Source of the DNA: a virus
Lineage: Duplodnaviria; Heunggongvirae; Uroviricota; Caudoviricetes
Direction: 5' to 3' (one strand)
Length of the DNA: 20,648 nucleotides
Virus record (IMG/VR): IMGVR_UViG_2778261382_000002
Positions 701 to 19,604 of this stretch are shown one piece after another (the first letter of the stretch is position 1; the number at the start of each line of letters is the position of its first letter). The position numbers and the translations under genes are program-made. The notes beneath the pieces were generated by a model. That model was not told the origin of the DNA and did not search any database. It saw only the letters and a list, made by a program, of their open reading frames with translations.

Positions 701-776
<76 letters not shown>

Positions 777-829: not shown

Positions 830-903
830 GGCGCGTTAACAAAGCGGTTATGTAGCGGATTGCAAATCCGTCTAGTCCGGTTCGACTCCGGAACGCGCCT
901 CCA
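830..903 (+). tRNA. cysT: tRNA-Cys (anticodon GCA)
   Basis: 74-nt sequence GGCGCGTTAACAAAGCGGTTATGTAGCGGATTGCAAATCCGTCTAGTCCGGTTCGACTCCGGAACGCGCCTCCA, matching the E. coli tRNA-Cys as I recall it; anticodon loop TTGCAAA. Confidence 0.95.
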
Positions 904-915
904 CTTTCTTCCCGA

Positions 916-1002
916 GCCCGGATGGTGGAATCGGTAGACACAAGGGATTTAAAATCCCTCGGCGTTCGCGCTGTGCGGGTTCAAGTCCCGCTCCGGGTAC
1001 CA
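916..1002 (+). tRNA. leuZ: tRNA-Leu (anticodon TAA), long variable arm
   Basis: 87-nt class II tRNA GCCCGGATGGTGGAATCGGTAGACACAAGGGATTTAAAATCCC...GGGTACCA with TAA anticodon and extended variable arm. Confidence 0.95.
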
Positions 1003-1045
1003 TGGGAAAGATAAGAATAAAATCAAAGCAATAAGCAGTGTCGTG

Positions 1046-1069
1046 AAACCACCTTCGGGTGGTTTTTTT
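1046..1069 (+). terminator. Rho-independent terminator of the tRNA operon
   Basis: Perfect 8-bp stem AAACCACC/GGTGGTTT with TTCG tetraloop, followed by a T7 run. Confidence 0.8.
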
Positions 1070-1161
1070 GTATCTTCTTTTTCATTTCCGAAGATGCGTC
1101 CGAAGATGATTTTTCTCTGGACGCATCATCATTCATTTTCTCTGGCCACCAACTACGGGCA

Positions 1162-1416
1162 CTACTTTAACTTTTCGGTCATATGCTGCTGTCTGTCGTG
1201 GGTTCTTATGCCCGGAAATTGCTTGCTTCTCTTCCAGGCTGCCTTAGGCGTAATCAGTTCTGGTGGGGGGAATGCCGATTTCTCCCGCGTGACCTTAATG
1301 TTTTCTGGCAGGTGTAGCCCAAGTTCGCAGCGGCTCCGTGCTTCAATAATGCCATTGGTACCATCGGCAAGTACCAGGTGAACCGCGTCACCACGCTTTA
1401 ATGTGAGTTTAAGCAT
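1162..1416 (-). CDS. Hypothetical protein (84 aa), translationally coupled to the upstream recombinase-like remnant
   Basis: Its ATG (1416-1414 on the - strand) overlaps the TAA stop of the upstream - strand ORF (TAATG). No family recognised. The overlapping + strand ORF 1043-1381 looks non-protein-like. Confidence 0.35.
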   Translation of the reverse strand: MLKLTLKRGDAVHLVLADGTNGIIEARSRCELGLHLPENIKVTREKSAFPPPELITPKAAWKRSKQFPGIRTHDRQQHMTEKLK

Positions 1417-2172
1417 TAGCGTACCCTCAGCGAACGTTCGCCGCGTTCCAGATGTGCGCCTGGTACCGGGTTAAGTAATTCGGCAGGTGGTGTTTCTCCA
1501 CGCGCCATTATTTCTGCGGCAACCGCCTCCGCAGATTCAATCACTTCTTTAATGGCTCGCTTGTTTGGTGTAATAACCGTTTCTACTTCAACAAGTGACA
1601 CGCCTTCATACTCGTCCGGGATCTTATCTTTGCTATCGATAATTACCCGGATAGCCCCCTGTGCATCAGTAAATGTGTTTTTAGCAGTTTTCAATTTACG
1701 ATGAATATTCTTTATCGCCTTTGGCTTCTGCTGCTTTTCGGTGTACATCCACTTCGCGGGCGATGAGGCCAAATACCTTGTTTACTTCGTTGGTGGTTAC
1801 CGCGGCGGCCAGCGTATTGGCAACGTTGATCAGCTTCTCATCCAGTTCCTTACGAAGACGGGTAGCATCTTCCGCATTCTCGCTGGCATTCTTGATATCA
1901 AACTCAGCTTTATTCCTCTGGCGGTATTCCGGATTGTCGTACAGGCCCATGAAAATATCGGCGCTGAATCCGAGAGGGGATAGCGCTTTCTTAACAGCAT
2001 CCGTCCAGGATTTCTTCGGCGCTTCGCCGTCGCTTGTTGGTCCATGTCTAGTATCGTAGATGTACGGAGTGCAACCGTAAGCCGCAGACTCGCCGCGCAC
2101 CCCATTCAATATGTACCAGACTCTCACTTTCATGGTGTGGTGCATTTCACATAGGTACAGCGTGGCTGAGAT
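1416..2172 (-). pseudogene. Rad52/Sak-like single-strand annealing recombinase, N-terminally truncated and frameshifted
   Basis: ORF 1696-2145 (-) contains KKSWTDAVKKALSPLGFSADIFMGLYD, which resembles the Rad52-family signature (K-E-A-V-T-D-x-L-K-R-A-L...F-G...L-D-K as I recall it). Only about 45 residues precede this motif and an in-frame stop lies at 2173-2175, so the N-terminal half of the domain is missing. The C-terminal part continues in another frame (ORF 1416-1772), overlapping by 77 nt. Confidence 0.5.
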
Positions 2173-2587
2173 TCAGTTAGTAATTCGTTGGGTTATTGCG
2201 ACATGGCGCCGTCGTAGCGGAAGCGTTCCGAAACCTGCGAACATTTGCCGCGTAAACCGGTTTGACGGATACCTGGCTGACGCTGAGACGTGGGCCACTG
2301 CTGAGGCTGCCGTTGACCCTGCTGAAGTTGTGAAGGGCTACAACGAGATTCTGGGCGACCTGCTACCTATAGCTGAAATTGATACTGACCGCCGTCGGGC
2401 AATCCTGCGCCTGCTGGCACATATGCGCACGCAAACTCTTGGCGCATTTATCGGCTACTTCGAAAAATTCCGCGATAACGCCCCAGACTTCTATTTCGGC
2501 GGCGAATATCGCACCGGCTGGCGGGCAGGGTTTGATTACCTGATGAAGCCAGAAACACTGCGTAAAACCAGGGAAGGGGCATTATGA
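2111..2587 (+). CDS. Phage replication initiation protein, C-terminal fragment (probably N-terminally truncated), coupled to the helicase gene
   Basis: The C-terminal roughly 100 aa (AEVVKGYNEILGDLLPIAEIDTDRRRAILRLLAHMRTQ...FGGEYRTGWRAGFDYLM) resemble the conserved C-terminal domain of phage O-like replication proteins that partner DnaB-type helicases. The first roughly 55 codons are W/C/R-rich and look non-coding. Stop overlaps the helicase start (ATGA at 2584-2587). Confidence 0.4.
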   Translation: MYQTLTFMVWCISHRYSVAEIQLVIRWVIATWRRRSGSVPKPANICRVNRFDGYLADAETWATAEAAVDPAEVVKGYNEILGDLLPIAEIDTDRRRAILRLLAHMRTQTLGAFIGYFEKFRDNAPDFYFGGEYRTGWRAGFDYLMKPETLRKTREGAL

Positions 2588-3975
2588 ATCCAGAAGAACT
2601 GGAAGCGATCGTTCTCGCTGGTCTGATTAACGGTGGCGCGACGCCTGACGCGTTTGATGTGATTGCCACTACTCCGGAGGAAGCCTTCAGCATCGTGTTT
2701 CACCGTCGCGCTTTCAGCGAAATCAAAAAGCAGGCACTGGCGAACGGCATGATCGACATGTTGTTTATCAGCGAAGCGCTGGGCGGTTCCAGCCTTGCGG
2801 ATCTGTCTCAAATATCCCGGATCCCGGCAACGGTACCGAATCTGAAAGGCTATGCCGGGAAAATGGTGCGGGCATGGCGGAGCCGCAAAATGGCGGCATT
2901 GTTGCAATCTGGCGCGGATGGTATCCGTAACGCTGTAAACCAGAGTCAGCGTGATGAGGTTATTGAATCTCATGTTGCTCAGGTGCTGGATATGAGCGCC
3001 GCTACCGGCACAGTCCAGCCGGTACACATCAAAGAGCTGTTACCGCTCTACATTGACACCGTTGATAAACGGATGTCTGGCGACGCGCAGGAAATGATGC
3101 TGAAAACCGGAGTCGAGGATCTGGATGTCGCCCTGGGCGGTATCAACATGACCGACCTTGTTGTGGTTGCCGGTCGTCCAGGCATGGGGAAAACGGAATT
3201 TACCCTGAAGATTATCGATGGCGTTACCGCAGATGGCGGCGGCGCACTGTTTTTCAGCATGGAAATGGGCGCTCAGCAGATTGTTGAACGTACCGTTGCC
3301 GGGGCTGGGAATATGTCCACGTCGCGTCTGCGTAATCCAAAAGAAATGGACGATGAGGATTTGACCAGATTAACCGCCGCGCTTGCAATCATGCAGGATC
3401 GCGATATCTGGATTGTTGATGCCACTGATTTGACGATTGAGCAGATCCGCGCCATTGCAGAGACTCATAAACGCCGTTATCCGCACCTGAAGTTGATTGG
3501 TGTTGATTACATGGGCCTGATCAAAAAACCGAAGGCCGAGCGCCACGATCTCGCTGTCGGGCATATCTCCCGCAACATGAAGACTATGGCCATGCGTCTG
3601 CATACCCCTGTTTTTGCTCTTAGCCAGCTTTCCCGCCAGGTGGATTCTCGACCTGCTGGCCAGCGTCGCCCGGTGATGTCGGACCTGCGCGATTCCGGCA
3701 GTGTTGAGCAGGACGCTGACAGCATTTTGTTTTTGTACCGCGATGAAGTTTACACACCTGATTCACCTGCAAAGGGTATCGCCGAGGTGATTATCGGTAA
3801 AAACCGTTCTGGCGGGGCAGGTGAAATTATTTATCAGGAATTCCGGAATGGGCATTTCCTGCCAGTTGATCAACACGTAGCACGCGAAAAATTACGCATC
3901 CAGAAGGAGGCAGAGCAACCGAGAAAACGTGAAAAACGGTATTCAAACAAAAACTTTAATACGGACCCATTTTAA
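2584..3975 (+). CDS. Replicative DNA helicase, DnaB family (phage-encoded)
   Basis: 463 aa with Walker A GRPGMGKT, DnaB-like N-terminal domain and C-terminal RecA-like core motifs (FFSMEM, LSQLSR, SDLRDSGSVEQDAD). Size and motif spacing are typical of DnaB. Confidence 0.9.
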   Translation: MNPEELEAIVLAGLINGGATPDAFDVIATTPEEAFSIVFHRRAFSEIKKQALANGMIDMLFISEALGGSSLADLSQISRIPATVPNLKGYAGKMVRAWRSRKMAALLQSGADGIRNAVNQSQRDEVIESHVAQVLDMSAATGTVQPVHIKELLPLYIDTVDKRMSGDAQEMMLKTGVEDLDVALGGINMTDLVVVAGRPGMGKTEFTLKIIDGVTADGGGALFFSMEMGAQQIVERTVAGAGNMSTSRLRNPKEMDDEDLTRLTAALAIMQDRDIWIVDATDLTIEQIRAIAETHKRRYPHLKLIGVDYMGLIKKPKAERHDLAVGHISRNMKTMAMRLHTPVFALSQLSRQVDSRPAGQRRPVMSDLRDSGSVEQDADSILFLYRDEVYTPDSPAKGIAEVIIGKNRSGGAGEIIYQEFRNGHFLPVDQHVAREKLRIQKEAEQPRKREKRYSNKNFNTDPF

Positions 3976-4013
3976 CCACGCATGACCAGCGTGAAATAAC
4001 CGAGGAAAGACCA

Positions 4014-4424
4014 ATGACCACCATTTCAGGCAAATTAGAGTACCCGTCGGACAAAGGACACATAGACGACGGTAAAAACTATCTCGACGTCATTTTGTGG
4101 AATATGAACGCCGGGCCACGTGCGCGCACTCGTGCGGTTTTTGTACCAAGACCCAAAGCAGGCAATTTTTCAACACCAGCTCAGCCTGCCCGTCAGGCAT
4201 CCGTAGCCGCAGCGCCAGCAGTGAAATGTAAGGGTAAAACGCACATCGGGATCGCGATTCGCAGAAATGGTGAGCGGCAAGTGAAACTCCACGAAACAGC
4301 GACAACCTGGTGTGCCTCACCGCATGAAACTTACGACAAGATAACCGGACAGCGCATTGGCGCGCCCGGTCGCTGTCGCCTGCTGCTGAGTTCCATCACT
4401 CCGATAGCAAAGAAAGGGACGTGA
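4014..4424 (+). CDS. Hypothetical phage protein (136 aa)
   Basis: ORF preceded by GAGGAAAG Shine-Dalgarno; first gene of a tightly packed small-gene operon. Pro/Ala-rich middle and three Cys; no family recognised. Confidence 0.45.
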   Translation: MTTISGKLEYPSDKGHIDDGKNYLDVILWNMNAGPRARTRAVFVPRPKAGNFSTPAQPARQASVAAAPAVKCKGKTHIGIAIRRNGERQVKLHETATTWCASPHETYDKITGQRIGAPGRCRLLLSSITPIAKKGT

Positions 4425-4425
4425 T

Positions 4426-4662
4426 ATGGCAGGGCAATCAGATTACCTGCCGCCCGGCTTACCACACAACCGCGCCAAATGGCCTCAGGAATACCTGCTT
4501 AAAGAGCACTACGACATGCGAGCGGCGACGCTGATCCGCCAACTCTTTGAGAAACGTATTCCGAGGGGAAGCGTGATTGAGCAAATCGGAATGACGCCGG
4601 ATACGTACCGGGAATTTTTCAGAGAGCGTCTGAACTACTGGAGAGGGGGGATGGAGCAATGA
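4426..4662 (+). CDS. Hypothetical phage protein (78 aa)
   Basis: Starts 2 nt after the previous stop; its stop overlaps the next start (ATGA). No family recognised. Confidence 0.45.
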   Translation: MAGQSDYLPPGLPHNRAKWPQEYLLKEHYDMRAATLIRQLFEKRIPRGSVIEQIGMTPDTYREFFRERLNYWRGGMEQ

Positions 4663-4970
4663 AATACAAACGGTGGGTGCGTGCGGAAGTCGTAATCATC
4701 AAACAATGTGCGGGCAGCATGATAGTTGAACGTATAGGGCAGCTTATTGGAAGAACCGGTGCTGCGGTACGCACAAAAGCGCGCGAGTTGAAAATCTGTA
4801 TGTATCTGCGGGGTAATTATCACCAGTCAGTGAAATACCGCCAGGAGGATATCGAGCTGGCAAGGGAATTACATCAGTCGGGTATTAATCGCCAGGATAT
4901 CGCGGAAAAACTCGAAATGTCGATCGGTGCGGTGAATCAGTATGTTTATTTTGAGCGGAGGATTTCATGA
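4659..4970 (+). CDS. Hypothetical protein with two helix-turn-helix-like segments (103 aa); possible DNA-binding regulator or small-terminase-like remnant
   Basis: SMIVERIGQLIGRTGAAVRTKAREL and INRQDIAEKLEMSIGAVNQYV both have HTH-like character. Translationally coupled on both sides. Confidence 0.45.
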   Translation: MKYKRWVRAEVVIIKQCAGSMIVERIGQLIGRTGAAVRTKARELKICMYLRGNYHQSVKYRQEDIELARELHQSGINRQDIAEKLEMSIGAVNQYVYFERRIS

Positions 4971-5191
4971 AAGAACTTTTTCTGGCATTTGTGCCCCGGT
5001 TTATTAATGACCAGATCGCACTGACTGATAATGGTGAACAATATGAAATTGCCTGCAGCATGGTGGATGTGAATCCTGGCGAACGGTATGACGCGATGTG
5101 TGACCTGAAAATATTTACCTGGCTGGGTTGGGCTATTCCGTGTGGAGAACCAACCAATATTCGCCCATTTGAGAGCAGGGAGGCTGTATGA
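4967..5191 (+). CDS. Hypothetical phage protein (74 aa)
   Basis: ATGA-coupled to the upstream gene; no transmembrane or enzymatic motif recognised. Confidence 0.4.
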   Translation: MKELFLAFVPRFINDQIALTDNGEQYEIACSMVDVNPGERYDAMCDLKIFTWLGWAIPCGEPTNIRPFESREAV

Positions 5192-5304
5192 GTGAGTTGA
5201 AAATACGTCGCAAGGCAATAGCACACGTTAAAAATCCATTACCAGTGCCCGCCGAATGCCATTTTTGTGGTGGGAATGTACGGATTGGTACGTATGTATG
5301 GTGA
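5188..5304 (+). CDS. Small hypothetical protein (38 aa) with one CxxC motif
   Basis: Not in the supplied ORF track (below 60 aa). ATG at 5188 overlaps the upstream stop (ATGA) and is preceded by GGGAGG 4 nt upstream. Product MSELKIRRKAIAHVKNPLPVPAECHFCGGNVRIGTYVW. Confidence 0.3.
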   Translation: MSELKIRRKAIAHVKNPLPVPAECHFCGGNVRIGTYVW

Positions 5305-5378
5305 TTGCGGAGTGACGTAAAACGAATCGTTGTGGGTGTAATATCGTCAATATCATTGGTTTCCCGGAGGGAAAGGAC

Positions 5379-5528
5379 ATGTTTGGCGATAAACTGGAGT
5401 TACCACGGAACGGGCGGATAGTGCTCTATATTTCAGATTACAAAGTAACCAGGGCTGAGGTGTTGGAACCGGAAAAACATCTGGTCACGTTACCGGACAT
5501 TATTGAGTTGTATAAGCGGGTCGGATAA
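5379..5528 (+). CDS. Small hypothetical protein (49 aa)
   Basis: Not in the supplied ORF track. Strong SD (GGAGGGAAAGGA) immediately upstream of ATG 5379. Product MFGDKLELPRNGRIVLYISDYKVTRAEVLEPEKHLVTLPDIIELYKRVG. Could alternatively be a remnant of a deleted upstream gene. Confidence 0.3.
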   Translation: MFGDKLELPRNGRIVLYISDYKVTRAEVLEPEKHLVTLPDIIELYKRVG

Positions 5529-5546
5529 CGGCTGGGGAGGTAACTG

Positions 5547-6854
5547 ATGCCGTGGAACAATTTTCCGCACCTCGCCGCCAGGGCGTTCAATCAACCGCTT
5601 TTGCTGGAGCCCACCTACGCGCGGGTATTTTTTTCGGCGCTGAGCGACCGGTTCGGTACCGGGCGACTGATTGATACAGCGTCTGGAGAGGTAATGAACA
5701 GCGACGAAATGAACGCGCTCGCGATGGGGTGGGACAGCAGCGAGCGAACACGCCAGAAATCGTATCGCGTGGAGCGTGGTATAGCCGTTCTGCCGGTTAC
5801 CGGGACGCTGGTTCATAAATTGGGTTATATCAACCCAGTTAGCGGGATGAGCGGTTACGACGGAATCGCAAAACGCCTGCAGCAGGCGATTTCTGATCCC
5901 GATGTAAGAGGGGTCCTGCTTGATATTGACTCCCCTGGCGGTGAAGTCGCCGGCGCGTTTGATACTGCTGATTTAATCGCCCGGGCGCGAGAGCAAAAAC
6001 CTGTGTGGGCGCTGGCCAGCGATACGGCCTGCAGCGCTGCCTATTTGCTGGCGTCAGCGTGTTCGCGCCGGCTGATAACGCAGACAGGCACAGTTGGTTC
6101 AATCGGTGTCCTGATGGCTCACCGCTGCGTCGAAAAAGCGCTGGAGATTGCTGGCGTCGACGTGACGCTGATTTACGCCGGCGCGCACAAAGTTGACGGG
6201 AACCCGTATTCCCAGCTGCCAGGCGACGTTCGCGACGAATTCCAGCTGAGTATTAACAGCACGCGCGAGCAGTTCGCGCAAAAAGTCTCGGATTATACCG
6301 GGCTGAAAAAATCCAGGGTGCTGGCCACGGAAGCTGCAGTATTTATCGGCGCGGACGCGATTAAATCTGGTCTCGCTGATCAACTCGTTAATTACGCGGA
6401 CGCTATCGCAGTGATGGCCGACGCACTGAAACCAAAAATGGAGCGCTTTATGTCTGGTACAGAAACCACGGCGGAGACCACGACCACAGAACAAACCGCG
6501 ACCACGACTACTGTCGCGCAGGTTGAGTTTAACACGGAGCAGATTCGCGCGGACGCCGCATCAAGCGAACTGGCGCGTGTGATGGCCATCATCAATTGTC
6601 CCGAAGCTGTTGGGCGCGAGGCGCAGGCAAAAGCGCTCGCTGGCGTCCCCGGGATGACGGTCGGGCAGGCGCAGGTAGTCCTCGCTGCAGCACCTAAAAC
6701 GGCGCAGGCGCGGACAGAAACGGCGCTCGATACACTAATGAGCACTGAATCACCAGCGACTATTCAGGATGCTGGCAGTACTACGGCAACAGGAACAACC
6801 GCAAACGTCTCGATGCTGGTTGCTGCAGGGCGTTCAATTTTAGGGGATGAATAA
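5547..6854 (+). CDS. Head maturation protease / minor capsid protein C (S49 ClpP-SppA-like), lambda gpC-like
   Basis: 435 aa; N-terminus FNQPLLLEPTYARVFF, GIAVLPVTGTL, DSPGG, KPVWALASDTACSAAYLLASAC and IYAGAHKVDGNPY parallel lambda gpC as I recall it. Strong SD GGGGAGG upstream. Confidence 0.9.
   Translation: MPWNNFPHLAARAFNQPLLLEPTYARVFFSALSDRFGTGRLIDTASGEVMNSDEMNALAMGWDSSERTRQKSYRVERGIAVLPVTGTLVHKLGYINPVSGMSGYDGIAKRLQQAISDPDVRGVLLDIDSPGGEVAGAFDTADLIARAREQKPVWALASDTACSAAYLLASACSRRLITQTGTVGSIGVLMAHRCVEKALEIAGVDVTLIYAGAHKVDGNPYSQLPGDVRDEFQLSINSTREQFAQKVSDYTGLKKSRVLATEAAVFIGADAIKSGLADQLVNYADAIAVMADALKPKMERFMSGTETTAETTTTEQTATTTTVAQVEFNTEQIRADAASSELARVMAIINCPEAVGREAQAKALAGVPGMTVGQAQVVLAAAPKTAQARTETALDTLMSTESPATIQDAGSTTATGTTANVSMLVAAGRSILGDE
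6450..6854 (+). CDS. Putative nested scaffolding protein (Nu3-like), in-frame internal start within C
   Basis: In-frame ATG at 6450 with GGAG 6 nt upstream (another in-frame ATG at 6438); the product would be the C-terminal roughly 135 aa of C, analogous to lambda Nu3 nested in C. Inference from organisation. Confidence 0.35.
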   Translation: MSGTETTAETTTTEQTATTTTVAQVEFNTEQIRADAASSELARVMAIINCPEAVGREAQAKALAGVPGMTVGQAQVVLAAAPKTAQARTETALDTLMSTESPATIQDAGSTTATGTTANVSMLVAAGRSILGDE

Positions 6855-7183
6855 TGACTACAGAAACGTATAGCCCGGACGATTTTATTCTTGGGCCTGA
6901 CCTTGTTGTCACGACCGTCGGTCATTTTCAGGGCGGGATCAACGTACCCCGGCTGACACCGATTATGCTCGACGCTACTGTCGGGACGTTTAAGGTTTGG
7001 GACGGCTCAGTCGGTAAAGCTATTGGCCTCACTGCCACCGCAGTTAATACTGGCTCCAGTTCTGCAGACTGCTCGTACTATAAATCAGGCTCGTTCCGTT
7101 ACACGGCGATTAACTGGGGTACGGTTACCGACGTAGCTAAACGCAAATCAGCATTTGTGGGTACGCCGATCAGCGTCGGCTGA
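6854..7183 (+). CDS. Head decoration protein, lambda gpD-like
   Basis: 109 aa; TPIMLDATVGTFKVWDG, YYKSGSFRY and AFVGTPISVG parallel lambda gpD (TPLMLDTSSRKLVAWDG, FYKSGTFRY, AFAGTAISIV). TAATG overlap with the C stop. Confidence 0.85.
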   Translation: MTTETYSPDDFILGPDLVVTTVGHFQGGINVPRLTPIMLDATVGTFKVWDGSVGKAIGLTATAVNTGSSSADCSYYKSGSFRYTAINWGTVTDVAKRKSAFVGTPISVG

Positions 7184-7202
7184 TAGCAAAAAACTCAAAA
7201 CA

Positions 7203-7225
7203 AGCCGCCTCCGGGCGGTTTTTTT
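7203..7225 (+). terminator. Putative intrinsic terminator or attenuator after the decoration gene
   Basis: GC stem CCGCC/GGCGG with 4-nt loop, followed by a T7 run, 20 nt after the D stop. Confidence 0.5.
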
Positions 7226-7241
7226 ATAACAGGATATATAA

Positions 7242-8276
7242 ATGAGCGATTCGTTTACTACGTCAGAACTGATTACCGCGACACAGCAGGTATTTAAGTT
7301 CAATCCGTTGTTTTTAAATCTGTTTTTCCGTGAGACCTACACGTTTACGAGCGAAGAGGTTTTTCTGGATAAAATCCCGGGAAAAGTGAACATGGCCGTG
7401 TACTGCGCGCCGATGATCACCGGCAAAGTTGACCGCACTCGCGGCTATTCAACGAACCATTTCAAACCGGGTTACACGAAACCCAAGCACACGATCAATC
7501 CGAATATGAGCATCAAGCGCGCAGCCGGTGAGCAGATTGGCCAGCCGGAAACGCCGGTCGAACGTCGTGCAAAAATCATCATGCAGAACCTGCTTGATGA
7601 GGAACTGAGCATCAGCCAGCTCGAAGAGTTCCAGGCGGTACAGGCTGTTCTGTACGGTAAATACACTGTTTCCGGCAGCAATATCGAGACATATGAGATC
7701 GACATGAGCCGCAGCGCGACGAATAACGTCACTCAGTCCGGTTCGACAGCCTGGTCGACTCAGGACGCGGAAACGTATGACCCGAGCGACGATATTGAAT
7801 CCTACGCGGACCTCGCCTCCGGTGCGGTTAACGTGATCATCATGGATGGTAAAGCCTGGAAGCAGTTGAAGCGTTTTAAAAAATTCTGGACGGCACTGGA
7901 TACGCGCCGTGGCTCAAACAGCCAGCTCGAGGTCGCGCTGAAAAACCTGGGCGACGTTGTCAGCTTTAAAGGCTACTACGGCGACACTGCGCTGTTTGTC
8001 TACAAAGGGCAATACCTCGACCCGGTAACAGATACTGAAACGCGTTATATGCCGGATAACACGATGATCCTTGGCAACACAAAAAACCGCGGGCTCCGCA
8101 CTTATGGCGCAATTCAGGACGAAGACGCGCTGAAAGAGGGTATTTCCGAAGCGACGCGCTATCCAAAAGTCTGGACCACTACCGGTGATCCGGCAGTGAC
8201 GCAAACAATGACGCAATCCGCGCCAGCAATGGTCCTCACGGACGCCGACGCGTTCGTTGTCGTAAAAATCGCGTAA
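7242..8276 (+). CDS. Major capsid protein, lambda gpE-like
   Basis: 344 aa; FKFNPLFLNLFFRETYTFTSEEVFLDKIPG, PGYTKPKH, IIMQNLLDEELSISQLEEFQAVQAVLYGKYT, LDTRRGSNSQLE, PDNTMILGNT, LRTYGAIQDEDA and RYPKVWTTTGDPA closely parallel lambda gpE. Confidence 0.93.
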   Translation: MSDSFTTSELITATQQVFKFNPLFLNLFFRETYTFTSEEVFLDKIPGKVNMAVYCAPMITGKVDRTRGYSTNHFKPGYTKPKHTINPNMSIKRAAGEQIGQPETPVERRAKIIMQNLLDEELSISQLEEFQAVQAVLYGKYTVSGSNIETYEIDMSRSATNNVTQSGSTAWSTQDAETYDPSDDIESYADLASGAVNVIIMDGKAWKQLKRFKKFWTALDTRRGSNSQLEVALKNLGDVVSFKGYYGDTALFVYKGQYLDPVTDTETRYMPDNTMILGNTKNRGLRTYGAIQDEDALKEGISEATRYPKVWTTTGDPAVTQTMTQSAPAMVLTDADAFVVVKIA

Positions 8277-8296
8277 GAGTCGAAAGGCTCTTTTTT
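8277..8296 (+). terminator. Putative intrinsic terminator after the major capsid gene
   Basis: Stem GAGTC/GGCTC with GAAA tetraloop, followed by T6, immediately after the E stop. Confidence 0.45.
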
Positions 8297-8310
8297 GTTA
8301 AGGAATCAAC

Positions 8311-8730
8311 ATGAGCACAAAAACAGAATTGCTGGCGCGTATTGACGATATGAGCGCTCAGCTCGGTCGCGAATTACCGCGCAGCGGGACTATTGCGGAA
8401 CTGGAATCAATCGTTGCCGGCGCTGAGTCAGAGCTCGATATTCTGAACGAGCAATCCGGTGACGCGGGAGGCATCGAGATTACAGTGAATACTGCGTCCG
8501 GGACCGATAATGAACTCGCTCAATCAATCGCGAGCGCTATCGTTTCACAGTCACAAGAGCAGGAGCTCGCACCGGCTACGCGCCGCGTCAAGTTGCGTAA
8601 CACGCTGGACGTTTATCACTACGTGAACGGGCGTCGCGTTCGCGAGATTGTTGCCGCAGGCCGTGAAATTGTTGTTGATTCACCGGAGGTCGCAGACCTT
8701 ATCGCAGCTGATCACGTTTACGCTCTATGA
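8311..8730 (+). CDS. DNA-packaging accessory protein, lambda gpFI-like
   Basis: 139 aa; N-terminus MSTKTELLARIDDMSAQLGRELPRSGTIAELESIVAGAESELD parallels lambda gpFI (MTKDELIARLRSLGEQLNRDVSLTGTKEELALRVAELKEELDD). Position after E as in lambda. Confidence 0.7.
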   Translation: MSTKTELLARIDDMSAQLGRELPRSGTIAELESIVAGAESELDILNEQSGDAGGIEITVNTASGTDNELAQSIASAIVSQSQEQELAPATRRVKLRNTLDVYHYVNGRRVREIVAAGREIVVDSPEVADLIAADHVYAL

Positions 8731-9107
8731 GCTACTACGATGACCTCCGGGCCGGCGACGAGGAGATGATCCGTGAGTGGGGACGGCCCGTTAAATTACG
8801 CGGTAAAACCGACCCCATTATCGCTATTTTCAACGAGCCTTACGCGCGCGTTGACGTTCCTCACGCTGGTTTTATTACCGGTACAGTAACGAGCCTGACG
8901 GCGTTCTCGGACGACGTCGCTGGCGTTGTTGCGCGTGACGTCGTCCAGGTTCCAAAGCAGCGCAGCATCGAACCTGACGGCTCTGTTACCTGGTCTGGCT
9001 GGACCGATTACGTGGTTAAAGAGCCTCAACCTGATGGCACAGGGCTCACGAATATTTTTTTAGAGCCTCACACGTCCAGCGAAAACAGCGAGTATTCAAA
9101 ATACTAA
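8727..9107 (+). CDS. Head-tail joining / head completion protein, lambda gpFII-like
   Basis: 126 aa; ATGA-coupled to FI; overall pattern resembles lambda gpFII; position conserved. Confidence 0.55.
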   Translation: MSYYDDLRAGDEEMIREWGRPVKLRGKTDPIIAIFNEPYARVDVPHAGFITGTVTSLTAFSDDVAGVVARDVVQVPKQRSIEPDGSVTWSGWTDYVVKEPQPDGTGLTNIFLEPHTSSENSEYSKY

Positions 9108-9138
9108 GTGGGACCTCGGTCCCACTTAAGGGGGAACC

Positions 9139-9819
9139 GTGGCCGATTTACGTAGTAACGCGCAGATGTTCGATATCGATGTTTCGGCGCTGGAGCAGCT
9201 CAGAGTCGAAATCAGCGCGACGCAACATCAAATGTTAATGGTATACAACAGGGCGCTGAACCGAACTGCAAAACATATGCACCGAATTTCAGCAGGAATG
9301 ATTTTGACTGCACTGGCAGCTAAAAATCATAAGGCCGTAGATAAACGAATCAAGCCGTTCATTAAGCGCCGTAATTTTACAAAAGAAGGGGCAGGAGACC
9401 TGAGCAGCGCCAAGCTCTGGTACGGTCTGAATGATTTCCGGGTATCTGAGCTAAAGGGGCGATTACAAAATCCACGGAGGCAAAAACAGCCTCGCGATCT
9501 TGAGACCGGCCTGTTTTTGAAAACCAAAAAAGGCGCTAGAGGGGCAACTTTTACACCCAAAAGTGCAGGGCTGGCGATGATGAGTTGGCCCGATTCATTC
9601 GTAGCGAAACGCTACGGTGCGAAAAGTGTCTGGATTCGACTGGATCGCGGAGGAATCGAAGAGGCTCGCGTACCTGTGCACGACGCGCTGGAGGATGCTA
9701 TCGATGATTATATTTTTGAAAACATTGGCCCTGTTTTTATGGGCTTTTTTGAGAAAGATTTGCGCGGTCGCGTGAAAGGTAATGTCCACGTAGACCCAAA
9801 AACAGGTAAACGATTATGA
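9139..9819 (+). CDS. Putative head-tail connector or tail completion protein (position of lambda Z / P2 R-S)
   Basis: 226 aa, GTG start preceded by strong SD AAGGGGG; basic protein between head-completion and baseplate genes. Function inferred from position only. Confidence 0.4.
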   Translation: MADLRSNAQMFDIDVSALEQLRVEISATQHQMLMVYNRALNRTAKHMHRISAGMILTALAAKNHKAVDKRIKPFIKRRNFTKEGAGDLSSAKLWYGLNDFRVSELKGRLQNPRRQKQPRDLETGLFLKTKKGARGATFTPKSAGLAMMSWPDSFVAKRYGAKSVWIRLDRGGIEEARVPVHDALEDAIDDYIFENIGPVFMGFFEKDLRGRVKGNVHVDPKTGKRL

Positions 9820-10352
9820 GCGGACTGGATGCATTTGACGAATATCTTGATCGCGTTAAAGGCGCGGTTTTACAAATACCGTTCATCAAAACATTCGGAA
9901 TTTATCCGGAAATTCCGGCTGGATTTGAAACGCCAGCTCTGTTCCTGGAAATCAGCAACTGGTCACAGAGTGACGAATCGGTTCCAGGCTCAATTCAGTC
10001 AGTCGAGCTGTCGTGTAATTTGTATTTGCTGCGTGAATTTGCAGCTGATCAGTACGGACTGAAATCGCAGAATGCAGCGCTCTATATGACGAGCTGGATC
10101 AATGGGCGAATGTTCGGTCCCGGAACTAAACCGGCAAAATTCAGCGACGCGGAACCGTGCGACTGGATTAAAAACGGGCAGTCAGTCGGTTCGCATTCAG
10201 TTCAGTGCGTGTCGTTCACGCAGGTTGTAGGCGTTGGTCCAGATATTTTCGATTATCCCTCACAGGGGACCCTGAAAAATATATACGTCGGAATAGCACC
10301 AGATATCGGCGCAGAACATGAGGGCGACTATTATGGCCCAATCGGACGATGA
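9816..10352 (+). CDS. Putative tail completion / tail terminator protein (position of P2 gpR-S / lambda gpU)
   Basis: 178 aa, ATGA-coupled to the upstream gene, immediately precedes the baseplate spike gene. Function inferred from position only. Confidence 0.4.
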   Translation: MSGLDAFDEYLDRVKGAVLQIPFIKTFGIYPEIPAGFETPALFLEISNWSQSDESVPGSIQSVELSCNLYLLREFAADQYGLKSQNAALYMTSWINGRMFGPGTKPAKFSDAEPCDWIKNGQSVGSHSVQCVSFTQVVGVGPDIFDYPSQGTLKNIYVGIAPDIGAEHEGDYYGPIGR

Positions 10353-11235
10353 ATATGCTGCAGCGGAGAACGCGCGCAGGCTGCGTGACGCAGTTAAACG
10401 CGGCACGATAGCTGCAGTTAAAATGAATCCTCCACGCTGCCGAGTCTCATTTGGTGGCGAACACCAGTCAGGCTGGCTGCAGTGGTTTACTCACGCCACC
10501 TCAGAACGCGTCGACTGGAGCGCACCATCAGTGGGCGATCCCGTTACTGTTGTTTCTGAGGGTGGGGATACGCGGAACGGTGTAGTTATGCTCGGGCTGC
10601 ACATTGACGACAAAGCTCCGTCAAGCAATGACCCCCATGATCATGTCACTGCATACTGTGACGGGGCTACGATGACGTATAACACAAAAAATCACACTCT
10701 GACATGGCAGGGCGTACCGGACGGCGTGGTAAAAATACTCGGTGAGTCTGAAATAGAAATATTTGGACGCGCAGATGTTACTATTAATAGCGAAAATGTA
10801 GTTAATATCCATGGTGGGAAATTAATTAACGCAGACGCTGATATTATTAATGTCACAGCGACAGATACAATTAACGCACATGCTGATTTAGTGAACGTTA
10901 TAGCAACGAGTTCTGTTAGTGTTACTGCTGCGAACAGAATATCGCTGACAGCTCAAACAATCAGCGCGTGGGCTCCGGGTGGTATAACACTAGCTGGTCC
11001 AACGCATATTACCGAGACATTAGTAGTAGATAAATTAGCGACATTCCGTAACGATATTTCTGTCACTGGAGATAACGGTGGAACAGGTAATATCACAACT
11101 CGCGGTAGTGTGTTAGCAGGGCAAGAGGTGCAGGACCGACAAGGCACAATGACTGAGGTCCGCACAACGTACAACGGACACACTCATATATGTCCGGACG
11201 GGGAAACACAACAACCGAACCAACCAATGGCGTAA
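10333..11235 (+). CDS. Baseplate central spike protein, P2 gpV-like
   Basis: N-terminal region CRVSFGGEHQSGWLQWFTHATS...WSAPSVGDPV parallels P2 gpV; C-terminal beta-helix-like repeats (VTINSENVVNIHGGKLINADADIINVTATDTINAHADLVNV) and an apex HxH motif (YNGHTHICPDG). ATG 10333 has GAGGG 8 nt upstream; the ATG at 10318 is an alternative start. Confidence 0.85.
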   Translation: MAQSDDEYAAAENARRLRDAVKRGTIAAVKMNPPRCRVSFGGEHQSGWLQWFTHATSERVDWSAPSVGDPVTVVSEGGDTRNGVVMLGLHIDDKAPSSNDPHDHVTAYCDGATMTYNTKNHTLTWQGVPDGVVKILGESEIEIFGRADVTINSENVVNIHGGKLINADADIINVTATDTINAHADLVNVIATSSVSVTAANRISLTAQTISAWAPGGITLAGPTHITETLVVDKLATFRNDISVTGDNGGTGNITTRGSVLAGQEVQDRQGTMTEVRTTYNGHTHICPDGETQQPNQPMA

Positions 11236-11237
11236 AT

Positions 11238-11579
11238 ATGCTTGGAATGGACCGTAACACCGGTAAGCCTTTATCGGGGACTGATCACATTTGTCAGTCT
11301 ATCGTTGATATTTTAACGACCCCGCTGGGAACCCGTGTAATGTTGCCGGAATACGGCAGCAAATTATTTGACCTCGTTGATAATCCCACTGATCCGTCGC
11401 TTGCTATGAGAATAATAATGGAAAGTGCAGGAGCAATAGCACGCTGGGAACCACGCGTCAGAATTGACAGAATAAATGTGTTAGCAGTGGACATCGGGAA
11501 AATAACAATATTAATTATCGCAACAGATATCGAAACACAACAGCGATTAGAGTTTAATAATATGGAACTGATATTTTGA
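11238..11579 (+). CDS. Baseplate wedge protein, P2 gpW / T4 gp25-like
   Basis: MLGMDRNTGKPLSGTDHICQSIVDILTTPLGTRVMLPEYGSKLFDLVDNP parallels P2 gpW (YLGMNRSDG...HISQSIGDILRTPVGSRVMRRDYGS). Start chosen by alignment; the track ORF begins at 11190. Confidence 0.85.
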   Translation: MLGMDRNTGKPLSGTDHICQSIVDILTTPLGTRVMLPEYGSKLFDLVDNPTDPSLAMRIIMESAGAIARWEPRVRIDRINVLAVDIGKITILIIATDIETQQRLEFNNMELIF

Positions 11580-12496
11580 TAACATCAACAGTTCAGAATT
11601 CGATAGTGAAAACTATTGATATGAGTCTGCTGCCGCCGCCAGCATTCGTTAAAACCCCATTATTTTCAGATGTTAAATCCAGTCTACTGTCAGAATTGCA
11701 GATATTATATCCACAATTTAACGCACTCCTGGAGTCAGACCCGGCCGTTAAACTGCTGGAAATAGTTGCATACAGAGAAATCATTATTACAGCTCGGGTA
11801 AATCAGGGGATGCTCGCTGTATTGCTCGCGTTTGCAAAAGGGAGTGACCTCGACCAGATCGGCGCTAATTTTGACTGCCTGCGGCTGTTGATAACGCCAG
11901 CTAATCCTGACGCAATTCCTCCGACTGAGGGGGTTTACGAGAGTGACGACGAGTATCGTCATCGCATACAGCTATCATGGTACGCGCGGAATACTGCCGG
12001 CAGTACGAACGCCTATAACTATTTCGCGCTGTCGAGTGATCCCGACGTTCTGTCAGCTCAGGCGTACGGCCCGCCGGTGACCCAGCCTGGATACGTCGAT
12101 ATGTATGTTTTGTCGCGAACCGGCGACGGCACTCCGCCTCAATCACTACTGAATACAGTGAATGCGGCCCTGTCTCCTGACGATACTCGACCGCTGACTG
12201 ATTTCGTGACTGTAAAACCTGCGTCGAACCTGAATTACCGGGTTGAAGCCGTTATCGTAGCGGGGCTCGGTCCCGATCAGAACGTGTTGCTCAACGGTGC
12301 TCAAAGCGATTTAGCTATATACGTGGCTACACAACATAAAATCGGGGCGACAGCAGCCCTGTCAGGAATTTACGACGCGATACATCGTGACGGAACGGAG
12401 CGTGTGATTCTGATATCGCCAACAGAGGATGTGATTGCTGGCGTCGGACAGGCTCCGTACTGCACAGAAATCAAACTCAGCGTGCAAATGGGGTAG
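11576..12496 (+). CDS. Baseplate assembly protein, P2 gpJ-like
   Basis: 306 aa; KLLEIVAYREIIITARVNQ, DLDQIGANFDCLRLLITPA and ESDDEYRHRIQLS parallel P2 gpJ. The track start at 11576 is TTG; the ATG at 11621 (MSLLPPPAF) is a plausible alternative. Confidence 0.88.
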   Translation: MITSTVQNSIVKTIDMSLLPPPAFVKTPLFSDVKSSLLSELQILYPQFNALLESDPAVKLLEIVAYREIIITARVNQGMLAVLLAFAKGSDLDQIGANFDCLRLLITPANPDAIPPTEGVYESDDEYRHRIQLSWYARNTAGSTNAYNYFALSSDPDVLSAQAYGPPVTQPGYVDMYVLSRTGDGTPPQSLLNTVNAALSPDDTRPLTDFVTVKPASNLNYRVEAVIVAGLGPDQNVLLNGAQSDLAIYVATQHKIGATAALSGIYDAIHRDGTERVILISPTEDVIAGVGQAPYCTEIKLSVQMG

Positions 12497-12498
12497 CC

Positions 12499-13125
12499 AT
12501 GACAAGTCAAAGCGTACTGCCTCCGAACGCAATAACCCCTGAGAGGGCGCTTGAGGTTGTTTTATCTCACGTCGGCGATCTGCCTGGCGATATTCGAATT
12601 ATTAAAAATCCCGATTTGTGCCCTGCAAATCTGTTGCCGTGGCTGGCGTGGGAGTACGCGGTCACCTACTGGAACCCCGACTGGAGCGAGCAGCAAAAAC
12701 GCGAAATTATTAAGGCCGCAGCCTGGCAAAATAAACATCGCGGCACGCGTGGTGCCGTCGAACGAGCATTATTAACGGTGGGATTTGAGAGCAAAATGAG
12801 AGAGTGGTTTGAAGCCACGCCCAGGGACGACCCGTATACATTCGCAATTAAAATATATCTGCTAAAAAGTATAGGGTTAGATTTAGAACTATTGAATACC
12901 TTTATTGCACAAATATTTGATGCAAAAAATTGCCGTTCCTTATTAAAAGAAATAAATTTTGAAACGGGTGTCGATGGTGAATTTTTTATAGCTGGTGCGC
13001 CTTACGCGAAAATAGGCGTAAATATCCCAGCAGACGGCGACGGCGGTGTAAAAATTAACGGCGGGCTATATATATCAGGCTCGCCAATTGTGAGTTTGTT
13101 AGTGGAGATAGGACCTAATGGCTAA
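12499..13125 (+). CDS. Baseplate / tail protein, P2 gpI-like
   Basis: 208 aa immediately after gpJ in conserved order; LLPWLAWEYAVTYWNPDWSEQQKREII is typical of the gpI family. Confidence 0.8.
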   Translation: MTSQSVLPPNAITPERALEVVLSHVGDLPGDIRIIKNPDLCPANLLPWLAWEYAVTYWNPDWSEQQKREIIKAAAWQNKHRGTRGAVERALLTVGFESKMREWFEATPRDDPYTFAIKIYLLKSIGLDLELLNTFIAQIFDAKNCRSLLKEINFETGVDGEFFIAGAPYAKIGVNIPADGDGGVKINGGLYISGSPIVSLLVEIGPNG

Positions 13126-14329
13126 ATTAAAATCAAATCTGAAAGCGAGCGCGAGCCAGGTTTATGCGGTACTGACAGACCGGGGGGCGCAACTTGAAGC
13201 CGCTGCGCTGGCATCGGGTGTACCCGTGGTGCTGAATAAATTCGTTATTGGCGACGCAAACGGAAACGACGACGTAACACCGGACCCGGCACGAACTGCA
13301 TTAATTCACGAGACGTATCGTGGGGATATTAAATCCGCAGAAAATAGCGGTAACCAGGTTATCTTTACACTTTACGTACCGCCAGACACTGGGGGCTATA
13401 CTATCCGTGAGGTGGGGATATTAACAGATAAAGGCGAGCTGTACTCTGTGGCGCGCTCGCCGGACATTTTAAAACCTACGGACAGCAACGGTGCGCTGAT
13501 TTCAATCACGTATAAATACACACTCGCGGTGTCCAGCACATCTACGGTTAATGTTGTAGTATATGACAACTACGTAACTCCCGAGGAAGCTGACAAAAAA
13601 TATTTGCAGATAAGTAAAAACTTATCTGAAATTCCCGCAAATGGTGAAACTGCTCAGCAGGCTGCGCGGAAAAATATTGGTATAGATGGGGACGTTGCAT
13701 ATAGAGATAAGGGTAATGCATTTACTCATCCAAATACTTTTAAAGATGATGTGATTTTTGAAGACGTTTTATCCTCTAAAAAACAAATAAATATAAACAA
13801 ACCGGGCACTGATTTGACGTTGTTTTCACTTGCTGGTTTATCAGATGTGTCGGGCGATTATTTAGATTTTTCGACCCGTGGAGAAAACAATCAGAAGGTT
13901 TTTTATAGATTACGCGGAGTTCACTATGATGGCCTGGTATTACTGTGTGGCGGAATGACGTATAAATACTGGAATGAGGCTAATCTTAAACCGGTTAAAA
14001 CGATTAACGGGGAGTCGCCGGATGAAAATGGCAACATAGATATAAGTCTTTCACCGGACCCATCACCGGAAATAGGTGTTGTTGGCGCGGTTAATACTTA
14101 TGCGCTTGTCGCTATTAATCATGCACCACAAATACTACCGGGCTCCATATGGGCTGGAGGTGATTTATATTACGCTAGTATAAATAATACCGGTTCATAT
14201 AACACGGATATTGCCACAAAACCATTTTATGACACACCCCTTGTTGGCTCATGGCGAGCTATGGCGTATTCACCAGGCGGGGTCGGTGATATTGGGACTG
14301 CCTGTTTTTTAGCTATTAGGATTGCGTAA
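13118..14329 (+). CDS. Tail fiber protein (P2 gpH-like N-terminal domain, divergent A+T-rich C-terminal receptor-binding region)
   Basis: N-terminal roughly 150 aa (VIGDANGNDDVTPDPARTALIHETYRGDI...YVPPDTGGYTIREVGILTDKGELYSVA) parallel the P2 gpH N-terminus. The C-terminal roughly 250 aa are unrelated and visibly more A+T-rich. Confidence 0.85.
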   Translation: MAKLKSNLKASASQVYAVLTDRGAQLEAAALASGVPVVLNKFVIGDANGNDDVTPDPARTALIHETYRGDIKSAENSGNQVIFTLYVPPDTGGYTIREVGILTDKGELYSVARSPDILKPTDSNGALISITYKYTLAVSSTSTVNVVVYDNYVTPEEADKKYLQISKNLSEIPANGETAQQAARKNIGIDGDVAYRDKGNAFTHPNTFKDDVIFEDVLSSKKQININKPGTDLTLFSLAGLSDVSGDYLDFSTRGENNQKVFYRLRGVHYDGLVLLCGGMTYKYWNEANLKPVKTINGESPDENGNIDISLSPDPSPEIGVVGAVNTYALVAINHAPQILPGSIWAGGDLYYASINNTGSYNTDIATKPFYDTPLVGSWRAMAYSPGGVGDIGTACFLAIRIA

Positions 14330-14619
14330 TGATAAGTGTTGATTCATTTAGAAAAATAACAAACCCTGTTTTTAATGACGAGCATGGGTTATCTATAAAT
14401 ATTATTTGCGATATTGACGGGATTGGAAACGACATTCCATTCACCGCAATGAAAAATGATTGCGAGGAACACGGTAGGGTTTTATATGAAAGAGCGCTGA
14501 GCGGGGATTATGGGAGCATTTCTAAATTTGTAAAAAAGAGCAGACGCAAAAACTCCAGACTACATTACGGACTGTTGGCGATCTGTCAATTGAGGCATTC
14601 TCAATTCAGTGTGCAGTAG
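14329..14619 (+). CDS. Putative tail fiber assembly chaperone (possibly frameshifted; continuation 14526-14717 in another frame)
   Basis: TAATG-coupled to the fiber gene, in the expected Tfa position. A second frame open from 14526 to the TGA at 14715-14717 encodes ...SIQCAVDAGTASDAQIENLAELKEAIATRIGENREGIK, which resembles Tfa C-terminal motifs; the frames meet at an A6 tract (14532-14537). Confidence 0.45.
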   Translation: MISVDSFRKITNPVFNDEHGLSINIICDIDGIGNDIPFTAMKNDCEEHGRVLYERALSGDYGSISKFVKKSRRKNSRLHYGLLAICQLRHSQFSVQ

Positions 14620-14713
14620 ATGCCGGAACCGCATCTGACGCGCAAATCGAAAACTTGGCCGAGCTTAAAGAAGCAATAGCGACGCGAATTGGTGAAAATA
14701 GAGAAGGAATAAA

Positions 14714-16216: not shown

Positions 16217-16233
16217 TAATTCGGAGATTAAAT

Positions 16234-16746: not shown

Positions 16747-16758
16747 AAGGCAAATAAA

Positions 16759-17040
16759 ATGGAATCATTATTAGACAGTATGACTATTACGCTCTCTCGC
16801 CCGTTTATTATTAAGGGTGAGAGCCGCGATACAATTACTATTCGCGAACCAAAATTACGCGACCGCATTATGTTCAGTAACGATAAAAGTGGTCTTGAAG
16901 AGCGGACAGCGACAATGCTGGCGCGCCTGGCAAATCTGGAGCGTGAGGATTTATATGCACTGCCTGCGTGCGATTACGATCAAATGGAGGCCGCGTTTAA
17001 CGAACTGGTAAAGCCCCCGAAAGACCGACATCAGATATAG
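16759..17040 (+). CDS. Tail assembly chaperone, P2 gpE-like
   Basis: 93 aa between the tube and tape-measure genes, the conserved position and size of gpE. Confidence 0.75.
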   Translation: MESLLDSMTITLSRPFIIKGESRDTITIREPKLRDRIMFSNDKSGLEERTATMLARLANLEREDLYALPACDYDQMEAAFNELVKPPKDRHQI

Positions 17041-18789: not shown

Positions 18790-18791
18790 CA

Positions 18792-19601: not shown

Positions 19602-19604
19602 TGA

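Follow-up and report, generated by a model that had tools for sequence, protein, structure and literature searches.

The DNA stretch analysed here (the window, 20,648 nt) raises the question of why the first recognisable gene of its lambda-type head module is that of the protease. Between the stop of a DnaB-like helicase ORF (3975) and the start of an S49 protease ORF (5547) lie 1,571 bp, occupied by six + strand ORFs of 136, 78, 103, 74, 38 and 49 aa. A sequence-only reading of the window had remarked on this gap, and suggested either that a recent deletion had removed Q, the lysis genes, cos, the terminase and the portal, or that these functions lie elsewhere or come from a helper. The element is very probably a young defective (cryptic) prophage, residing at leuZ of E. 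coli and derived by deletion from a complete prophage. Its features are listed in Table 1.

Table 1. Features of the window and of the four deletion junctions (D1 to D4); L004 is the locus of the full-length relative in E. coli 22KM0354.
Feature	Position	Strand	Evidence or remarks
tRNA-Gly, preceding leuZ	701-776		
tRNA-Cys, preceding leuZ	830-903		
tRNA-Leu (leuZ), integration target	916-1002	+	ARAGORN; RefSeq annotation
attL, copy of a 125-bp perfect direct repeat	947-1071	.	covers 3' end of leuZ and its terminator
Integrase pseudogene, 111-bp C-terminal fragment	1133-1243	-	PGAP 'incomplete' flag; intact 1017-bp gene in L004
Junction D1	1244-1245	.	L004 1246-2600 missing; microhomology 2 nt
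Gp157-family gene fragment, pseudogene	1416-1697	-	RefSeq annotation; blastn
Junction D2	1697-1698	.	L004 3056-3423 missing; microhomology 2 nt; blastn
Internal fragment of a 2.2-kb early gene, pseudogene	1702-2157	-	annotation; blastn against L004
Junction D3	2156-2158	.	L004 3886-8967 missing; microhomology 3 nt
Replication initiator RepO/lambda O-like, C-terminal fragment, pseudogene	2156-2587	+	annotation; PHROG replication initiation O-like
DnaB-like replicative helicase, intact	2584-3975	+	PHROG_19, 2e-110
Small early-region ORF, 136 aa	4014-4424	+	
Small early-region ORF, 78 aa	4426-4662	+	
Small early-region ORF, 103 aa	4659-4970	+	HTH regulator
Small early-region ORF, 74 aa	4967-5191	+	
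Small early-region ORF, 38 aa	5188-5304	+	
Small early-region ORF, 49 aa	5379-5528	+	
Junction D4	5524-5527	.	about L004 12339-28096 missing; GATA, 4-nt microhomology
Portal gene remnant, last 7 codons and stop	5524-5547	+	tblastn, portal residues 518-524 at 5524-5544; alignment
Head maturation protease with C-terminal scaffold region, lambda C/Nu3 type, S49	5547-6854	+	Pfam PF01343, 2e-37; PHROG_53 and scaffold PHROGs
Head decoration protein, lambda D-like	6854-7183	+	Pfam HDPD, 1.3e-6; PHROG_49, 8e-22
Major capsid protein, lambda E family	7242-8276	+	Phage_cap_E PF03864, 1e-59
FI-like packaging chaperone	8311-8730	+	Packaging_FI PF14000, 4e-8; PHROG_92
FII-like head-tail attachment/head closure protein	8727-9107	+	Phage_attach PF05354, 1e-10; PHROG_82
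Neck/tail completion gene, unknown gene, baseplate V, W/gp25, J, I, tail fibre	9139-14329	+	PHROGs; annotation
Frameshifted gene, N-terminal region weakly matching tail-fibre PHROGs	14329-14713	+	alignment; PHROG
Contractile tail genes: sheath, tube, tail assembly protein (PGAP name), 546-aa protein, gpU-like, gpX-like, gpD-like	14714-20648	+	PHROGs; annotation; gpD-like gene ends at window end

The gap was found as first described: it holds only the six small ORFs, and none of them matches a terminase or portal family in Pfam or PHROGs. Their matches are to early-region PHROGs: the 78-aa product is DNA pol III theta-like, a D5-like transcriptional regulator was also hit, and other matches are to unknowns. 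A six-frame tblastn search of the window with the C-terminal 420 aa of TerL, gpW and the portal of a close relative recovered only the last 7 portal codons (5524-5544). These two results rule out that any of the small ORFs codes for a diverged terminase or portal. For Q, holin and endolysin, none was detected by PHROG scans of the tail-module ORFs, nor in the RefSeq annotation of a near-identical record. On either side of the element, 14 kb of flanking DNA consist of core E. coli genes in the RefSeq annotation (fli, tcy, sdiA, uvrYC and pgsA on one flank, yecA, tyrP, ftn, araFGH and otsBA on the other). The window and the rest of the element are thus devoid of Q, lysis genes (holin and endolysin), terminase, gpW and portal, and, given the agreement of these searches and the nature of the flanks, this absence is real rather than due to chance or to miscalled ORFs.

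Downstream of the gap, homologues of C, D, E, FI and FII stand in lambda order, and Pfam and PHROGs bear out the sequence-only reading on each of them. The D-like protein scores 29.0 bits against the HDPD model, 0.1 bit below its gathering cut-off of 29.1, and the PHROG_49 match backs the assignment. The terS, gpA terminase, gpW and lambda-family portal genes expected upstream of C are missing in the window and present in an intact relative, so that the module is a truncated member of the lambda-type head module.

This relative is a near-identical full-length prophage integrated at the same leuZ att site in E. coli 22KM0354, which shares many identical protein accessions with the window-type record, that of the helicase included. 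Pairwise alignments and blastn segments resolved the window into five collinear blocks, 99.9-100% identical to L004 and separated there by clean gaps of 1,355, 368, 5,082 and 15,758 bp, a pattern that characterizes a defective prophage. For D1, window 1003-1245 corresponds to L004 1003-1245 and window 1244-1698 to L004 2601-3055, both at 100% identity; most of int and a DUF4224 xis-like gene are gone. With D3 a cI-like repressor gene, cro, a ydaT-like gene and the N-terminal part of RepO were lost. In the intact phage, too, the helicase gene is followed by the six small ORFs, which are collinear with L004 8968-12338 at 99.94% identity.

The largest gap, D4, accounts for the truncated head module. 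The 15,758-bp block encodes accessory genes, Q (annotated by PGAP), two holins (Phage_holin_8 and Phage_holin_3_7), a CHAP/TIGR02594 endolysin, terS (PHROG_57, 1e-39), terL (gpA, with GpA_ATPase and GpA_nuclease domains), gpW and a lambda-type portal (Phage_portal_2, 8e-91). The order terS-A-W-B-C-D-E-FI-FII, which had been assumed from lambda, does hold in the intact relative. The junction falls 23 nt upstream of the protease ATG; the stop of the portal remnant overlaps this ATG, and the protease gene is intact, with its native RBS and start codon. Between flanks that are 99.94-100% identical, the deletion removed the Q, lysis, terminase and portal genes as had been proposed, and the head module seems to begin at the protease because these genes were taken out. 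The cos site presumably went with them: the region upstream of terS, where a lambda-type cos is placed, lies inside the deleted block, and a search for a lambda cosN-like 12-mer (up to 2 mismatches) returned no convincingly placed site in the window or in the intact prophage. Overall, lytic-cycle functions that are absent or truncated comprise int, cI/cro, the RepO N-terminus, Q, the holins, the endolysin, terS, terL, gpW and the portal. The proposal that the loss is recent also stands, as over about 19.6 kb the window departs from the intact relative by only 8 SNPs and 3 one-base indels (about 0.05%). The Q gene of this 'full-length' prophage carries an internal stop, and the viability of the parent itself is therefore unproven.

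Could the packaging and lysis genes be located elsewhere in the same prophage, for example beyond the gpD-like gene (gene D)? The second copy of the 125-bp repeat, attR, lies outside the window, at the equivalent of 21454-21578, as an exact repeat in the near-identical locus L001; the same 125 bp are found at attR of L004, L005, L006, L007 and L009. The element, flanked by direct repeats at its att site as expected of a defective prophage, therefore ends about 800 bp past gene D, with a single 139-aa hypothetical ORF in between and yecA next. Attachment-site position and annotation rule out genes beyond gene D, and in the intact relative the genes in question are upstream of the protease, in exactly the missing block. 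No evidence was found in favour of such a location, and we give it a negligible probability. The leuZ gene is a recognised prophage site in STEC (PMC8767318).

We also asked how the truncated allele is distributed. Among 5,426 complete E. coli genomes, terminase, W, portal and protease are contiguous in 443, and the D4 junction is present in only 3 (from the USA, France and the UK), i.e. 3 of roughly 450 carriers of the prophage. Strains GmF046, CEA601S and AHB18 are the carriers of D4. Junctions D1-D3 were found in six genomes. Parent-type prophages, combining a lambda-type head with a P2-type tail, occur in about 8% of complete E. coli genomes. A collapsed or mis-assembled terminase-portal block might be suspected, as the best-matching record is a WGS-derived chromosome from which the window differs by 2 SNPs and 1 indel. 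Yet three complete genomes, each sequenced independently and each from a different country, agree at the D4 junction in 501/501 bp, and D1-D3 recur in six, which leaves an assembly or annotation artefact with next to no credibility.

The sister strains show that decay has continued. In AHB18, the baseplate genes V, W and J were destroyed by an IS1 insertion together with the loss of window 10695-11605. D1-D3 and the frameshift downstream of the tail fibre gene are also present in three New Zealand strains, but these have lost window ~2877-10302 (7.4 kb) and with it the entire head module. The series runs from the intact prophage to D1-D4, then to D1-D4 plus IS1 (AHB18), and separately to D1-D3 plus loss of the head module. 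In one human-associated E. coli lineage, four to five microhomology deletions coexist with almost no point divergence from the intact phage.

These data bear on the proposal that the element is a satellite, borrowing terminase, portal and lysis functions from a helper phage resident in the same host. The packaging accessory factor FI is retained along with all the other head genes, and in one carrier strain the tRNA is also occupied by a complete P2-like prophage, arranged in tandem. But this neighbour has P2-type packaging genes (gpP/gpQ/gpM-type annotation) rather than lambda-type ones, and is missing from the other two carriers. The integrase is reduced to a 111-bp fragment, the xis-like gene is deleted, the repressor is gone and the replication initiator is truncated, leaving only the helicase intact; the terS-proximal region where cos is expected falls within the deletion. 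The architecture is that of a complete prophage at about 0.05% divergence from which segments were deleted, 3 genomes against 443 intact do not make a conserved lineage, and sister strains have lost head or baseplate genes. The satellite reading is thus largely refuted and highly improbable, and a supply of the missing functions from within the element or from a helper, the other half of the original suggestion, finds no support in the element, its flanks, the tandem prophage or the sister strains.

A structural module domesticated by the host, to serve for instance as a tailocin of the R type or as a capsid-like compartment without a portal, would account for another aspect of the locus, namely that about 15 kb of head and tail ORFs are still open, all intact except for the portal and one frameshifted gene, and that the protease RBS and ATG were spared at the deletion end. 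This is very unlikely all the same. R-type tailocins have their own regulators and a lysis cassette and no head genes; here head genes are present and lysis and regulatory genes are not. Neither Q nor the late promoter would be available to such a module, and a promoter scan of 1000-5700, in itself weak evidence, found no sigma-70-like promoter on the + strand. The frameshift, at ~14532, affects the gene between tail fibre and sheath: alignment with the intact relative shows an A7 run shortened to A6, and a 129-aa product there against a 96-aa ORF here, unannotated by PGAP. IS1 has wrecked the baseplate genes of AHB18 and the head module is deleted in the three New Zealand strains. That the ORFs are still open is accounted for by how little time has passed since the deletion; this could also reflect selection, but is equally expected at about 0.05% divergence. 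Among the tail genes, the 546-aa protein is a putative tape measure from its position and size, its PHROG (3654) having no assigned function.

Returning to the defective prophage, the following history may be proposed. The parent would have been a temperate myovirus of about 43 kb, in which a P2-like contractile tail was combined with an early region, a lysis cassette and a head operon of lambda type (terS-terL/gpA-gpW-portal-C/Nu3-D-E-FI-FII). Four deletions by illegitimate recombination, each at 2-4 nt of microhomology, would have eroded it: D1 taking most of int and xis, D2 cutting 368 bp out of the early genes, D3 eliminating the immunity region and truncating the replication initiator gene at its 5' side, and D4 removing everything from just past the sixth small early ORF to just before the protease start, presumably including the late promoter and cos. 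Lacking integrase, the remnant would be unable to excise, and with its initiator truncated it could not replicate from its own origin. It is also predicted to be incapable of nucleating portal-containing proheads, packaging DNA or lysing the cell. Most likely, it is transcriptionally silent passenger DNA that is still eroding.

There is a small chance that this decay was not purely neutral. Disarmament could have been rapid, stepwise and selected, with lysis and packaging lost after integration, immunity and replication; a single complex template-switching event would explain the deletion pattern equally well. Under both scenarios the head-tail block might have been transiently retained for the benefit of the host.

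The best-known counterparts are the cryptic prophages of E. coli (DLP12, Rac, Qin and e14 of K-12, and the O157 Sakai pool), likewise lambdoid-type elements integrated at tRNA or hot-spot sites, in which internal deletions, pseudogenes and IS insertion have abolished induction and packaging, as is predicted for the present element. Compared with the K-12 remnants, the leuZ element is much younger (99.95% identity to an apparently complete relative), keeps a nearly complete head-tail module, and belongs to a deletion series traceable among sequenced strains. With lambda itself, the intact relative shares head gene order and Pfam families (GpA ATPase/nuclease, gpW, Phage_portal_2, Peptidase_S49, HDPD, Phage_cap_E, Packaging_FI and Phage_attach), but nucleotide identity is only about 64% over C-D-E, and the tail is P2-like and contractile, unlike the siphovirus tail of lambda. 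Neither a cultured representative of the parent prophage nor any matching cultured E. coli phage was present in the phage collection searched. The sole close 'phage' records (vB_EcoM-569R10 and others) proved to be prophage fragments carrying the host gene yecA. The nearest cultured phages in the collection, Aeromonas phage phiARM81ld and related Aeromonas myoviruses, infect another host and are distant in sequence (about 65-67% nucleotide identity in the terminase-portal region). Phage satellites such as P4, the PICIs and cf-PICIs borrow structural functions from a helper phage, and satellites (P4, PICI/cf-PICI, PLE) likewise have an incomplete morphogenesis gene set; unlike them, the leuZ element lacks a functional integrase, an intact replication initiator and the presumed packaging-site region, and is a rare, deletion-derived and still decaying allele of a complete phage.

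The locus is thus a case of ordinary prophage decay, and neither a satellite nor a new kind of element. It is best annotated as a defective prophage, and no inducible phage, satellite or tailocin should be deduced from the presence of head and tail genes. Beyond correct annotation its significance is small, but the strains together provide an unusually clean series of prophage erosion, with junctions resolved to the base pair.

The whole window is matched by the chromosome of E. coli GmF046 (NZ_CM183658.1, 2041357-2062003), the two sequences being 2 SNPs and 1 single-base indel apart: substitutions at 7307 and 7319, within or close to the beginning of the capsid gene, and one extra T at about 19302-19310, in the intergenic stretch before the gpX-like gene. 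The window therefore stems from a sister assembly, or a version of the sequence, very close to that record. Beginning within pgsA, the window passes through the tRNA genes glyW, cysT and leuZ into phage-derived DNA that continues to its end. Examination of 14-kb flanks placed leuZ and yecA on either side of the phage DNA, and the element, of about 20.5 kb, has at each end one copy of a perfect 125-bp direct repeat, at window 947-1071 and, shortly past the window, at the equivalent of 21454-21578; the repeat takes in the leuZ 3' end. A single 139-aa hypothetical ORF separates the P2-like tail gene D from attR/yecA.

The sequence-only reading had found no terminase, portal or lysis genes ahead of the head protease, and both family scans and six-frame tblastn agree. 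The 1,571-bp interval between the helicase ORF (end 3975) and the S49 peptidase ORF holds six + strand ORFs of 136, 78, 103, 74, 38 and 49 aa, matching only early-region families in PHROGs (theta-like protein, D5-like regulator, unknowns). When TerL (C-terminal part), gpW and portal from a close relative were searched against the six frames of the window, nothing was detected beyond the last seven portal codons (5524-5544), and the window contains no Q, holin or endolysin gene. Beyond the head genes (see table), the remaining ORFs encode a neck/tail completion protein and an unknown protein, baseplate V, W/gp25, J and I, tail fibre, sheath and tube, a tail assembly protein, a 546-aa protein in tape-measure position, and U-, X- and D-like proteins.

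Deletion junctions and head genes of the remnant; deletions are relative to the 22KM0354 prophage
Feature	Window position	Length deleted	Microhomology	Genes lost, or family match
D1	1244-1245	1,355 bp	2 nt	most of int, xis
D2	1697-1698	368 bp	2 nt	parts of two early genes
D3	2156-2158	5,082 bp	3 nt	immunity region, RepO 5' part
D4	5524-5527	15,758 bp	4 nt (GATA)	accessory genes through portal
S49 head protease with scaffold-like C-terminus	5547-6854			PF01343, 2e-37
lambda D-like decoration protein	6854-7183			PF02924; PHROG_49, 8e-22
E-family major capsid protein	7242-8276			PF03864, 1e-59
FI	8311-8730			PF14000
FII	8727-9107			PF05354

The missing genes are present in E. coli 22KM0354 (NZ_CP151071.1), where a prophage of about 43 kb occupies the same leuZ-yecA site and has many RefSeq protein accessions in common with the remnant. 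Its order is int, xis-like, early genes, cI-like repressor, cro, ydaT-like and RepO, followed by the helicase and the same small ORFs, then ORF6N, LprI, GIY-YIG, ImmA and other accessory genes, then Q, two holins, endolysin, terS, terL (gpA), gpW and portal, and finally the S49 protease, D, E, FI, FII and the tail genes through gene D. Family scans identified its lysis block (Phage_holin_8, Phage_holin_3_7, CHAP-type endolysin) and its packaging block (terS, PHROG_57, 1e-39; GpA_ATPase and GpA_nuclease; gpW; Phage_portal_2, 8e-91). In the annotation, the Q antiterminator gene of this prophage (L004:21103-21774) is a pseudogene carrying an internal stop. This copy of the prophage may itself be non-inducible. 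In its portal gene, 35 nt absent from the window (L004:27768-27802) match at 100% a CRISPR-annotated feature of E. coli O27:H7 strain B4103-1, pointing to spacer acquisition directed at this family of prophages.

Alignment of the window with this prophage gave five collinear blocks of 99.9-100% identity separated by four gaps (D1 to D4), thereby locating both the lost genes and the junctions, and the recent deletion first proposed from the sequence is confirmed. The left edge of D4 directly follows the sixth small ORF, and its right edge falls within the final portal codons, 23 nt before the ATG of the protease, which retains its native ribosome-binding site. Divergence over the approximately 19.6 kb retained amounts to 8 SNPs and 3 single-base indels, one of which, A7 to A6, frameshifts a 129-aa gene lying between tail fibre and sheath. 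At window 5372, shortly before the 49-aa ORF (5379-5528), one A has been inserted compared with the intact prophage.

Among 5,426 complete E. coli genomes, a 501-bp probe spanning the D4 junction matched end to end in three, GmF046 (USA), CEA601S (France) and AHB18 (UK), and a probe for the intact terminase-gpW-portal-protease arrangement was contiguous in 443. The D4 allele is a rare offshoot of a prophage that is itself common. Since three independent assemblies carry the junction, an assembly artefact is ruled out.

Sister strains have undergone further changes. In AHB18 (NZ_OZ546938.1, L007:12818-14853), an IS1 (IS1B) stands in place of window 10695-11605, truncating baseplate V and J and removing gpW/gp25. 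Three New Zealand isolates (19AR1724, 23AR1217 and 24AR0180) have D1 to D3 and the frameshift in common with the window, and have lost window positions ~2877-10302, a stretch covering the greater part of the helicase, all the small ORFs and the whole head module; this 7.4-kb deletion (NZ_CP195804.1, L009:2636-2956, in 19AR1724) has fused the first 300 bp of the helicase gene to sequence lying immediately before baseplate V. CEA601S carries in tandem at leuZ, between leuZ and the remnant, a P2-like prophage that is complete and about 35 kb long (NZ_CP166713.1, L008:479-35755; int, replication endonuclease, P2-type portal/terminase/capsid, lysis cassette, tail genes, ogr), and the attL of the remnant therefore still serves as an integration site. 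The sequence-only reading had alternatively proposed a satellite-like element whose packaging functions come from a helper. The P2-like prophage might have been such a helper, but the annotation of its packaging genes is P2-type, and the other carriers lack it; together with the decay in AHB18 and the New Zealand strains, this argues against a helper relationship and against selection keeping the head and tail genes. The decidable defining features of satellites are also lacking in the remnant, as are those of tailocins.

The remnant is best read as the product of ordinary prophage erosion through illegitimate recombination, a history in which the junctions, the identity of the lost genes, the low frequency of the allele and the continued decay in sister strains are directly observed. 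The late promoter and cos probably lay within D4, as they are expected beside Q and terS as in lambda; a cosN-like sequence was searched for and none was identified. The remnant is probably transcriptionally silent; scanning upstream of the head operon found no + strand sigma-70-like promoter. In lambda, capsid assembly without portal gives no packaging-competent proheads, and by analogy the portal-less remnant would form none.

The parent phage combines a head operon of the lambda type (C-D-E nucleotide identity to lambda ~64%) with a P2-like contractile tail, and within the phage collection the cultured phages closest to it are Aeromonas myoviruses, for example phiARM81ld (~65-67% identity). 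Those ‘phage’ records that are near-identical (vB_EcoM-569R10 and similar) represent prophage fragments with yecA among their genes. Four of them, titled ‘Escherichia phage vB_EcoM-... complete genome’ (ON470596.1, ON470604, ON470624, ON470627), are 20-27 kb long; ON470596.1 and similar entries start inside terL, end in host yecA, and have the portal mislabelled ‘plasmid partitioning protein ParB’. In STEC, leuZ is known as a site of prophage integration (PMC8767318). The locus is a defective prophage of a familiar kind, similar to the K-12 cryptic prophages and the O157 defective prophage pool, produced by recent deletion, and represents nothing of a new type.
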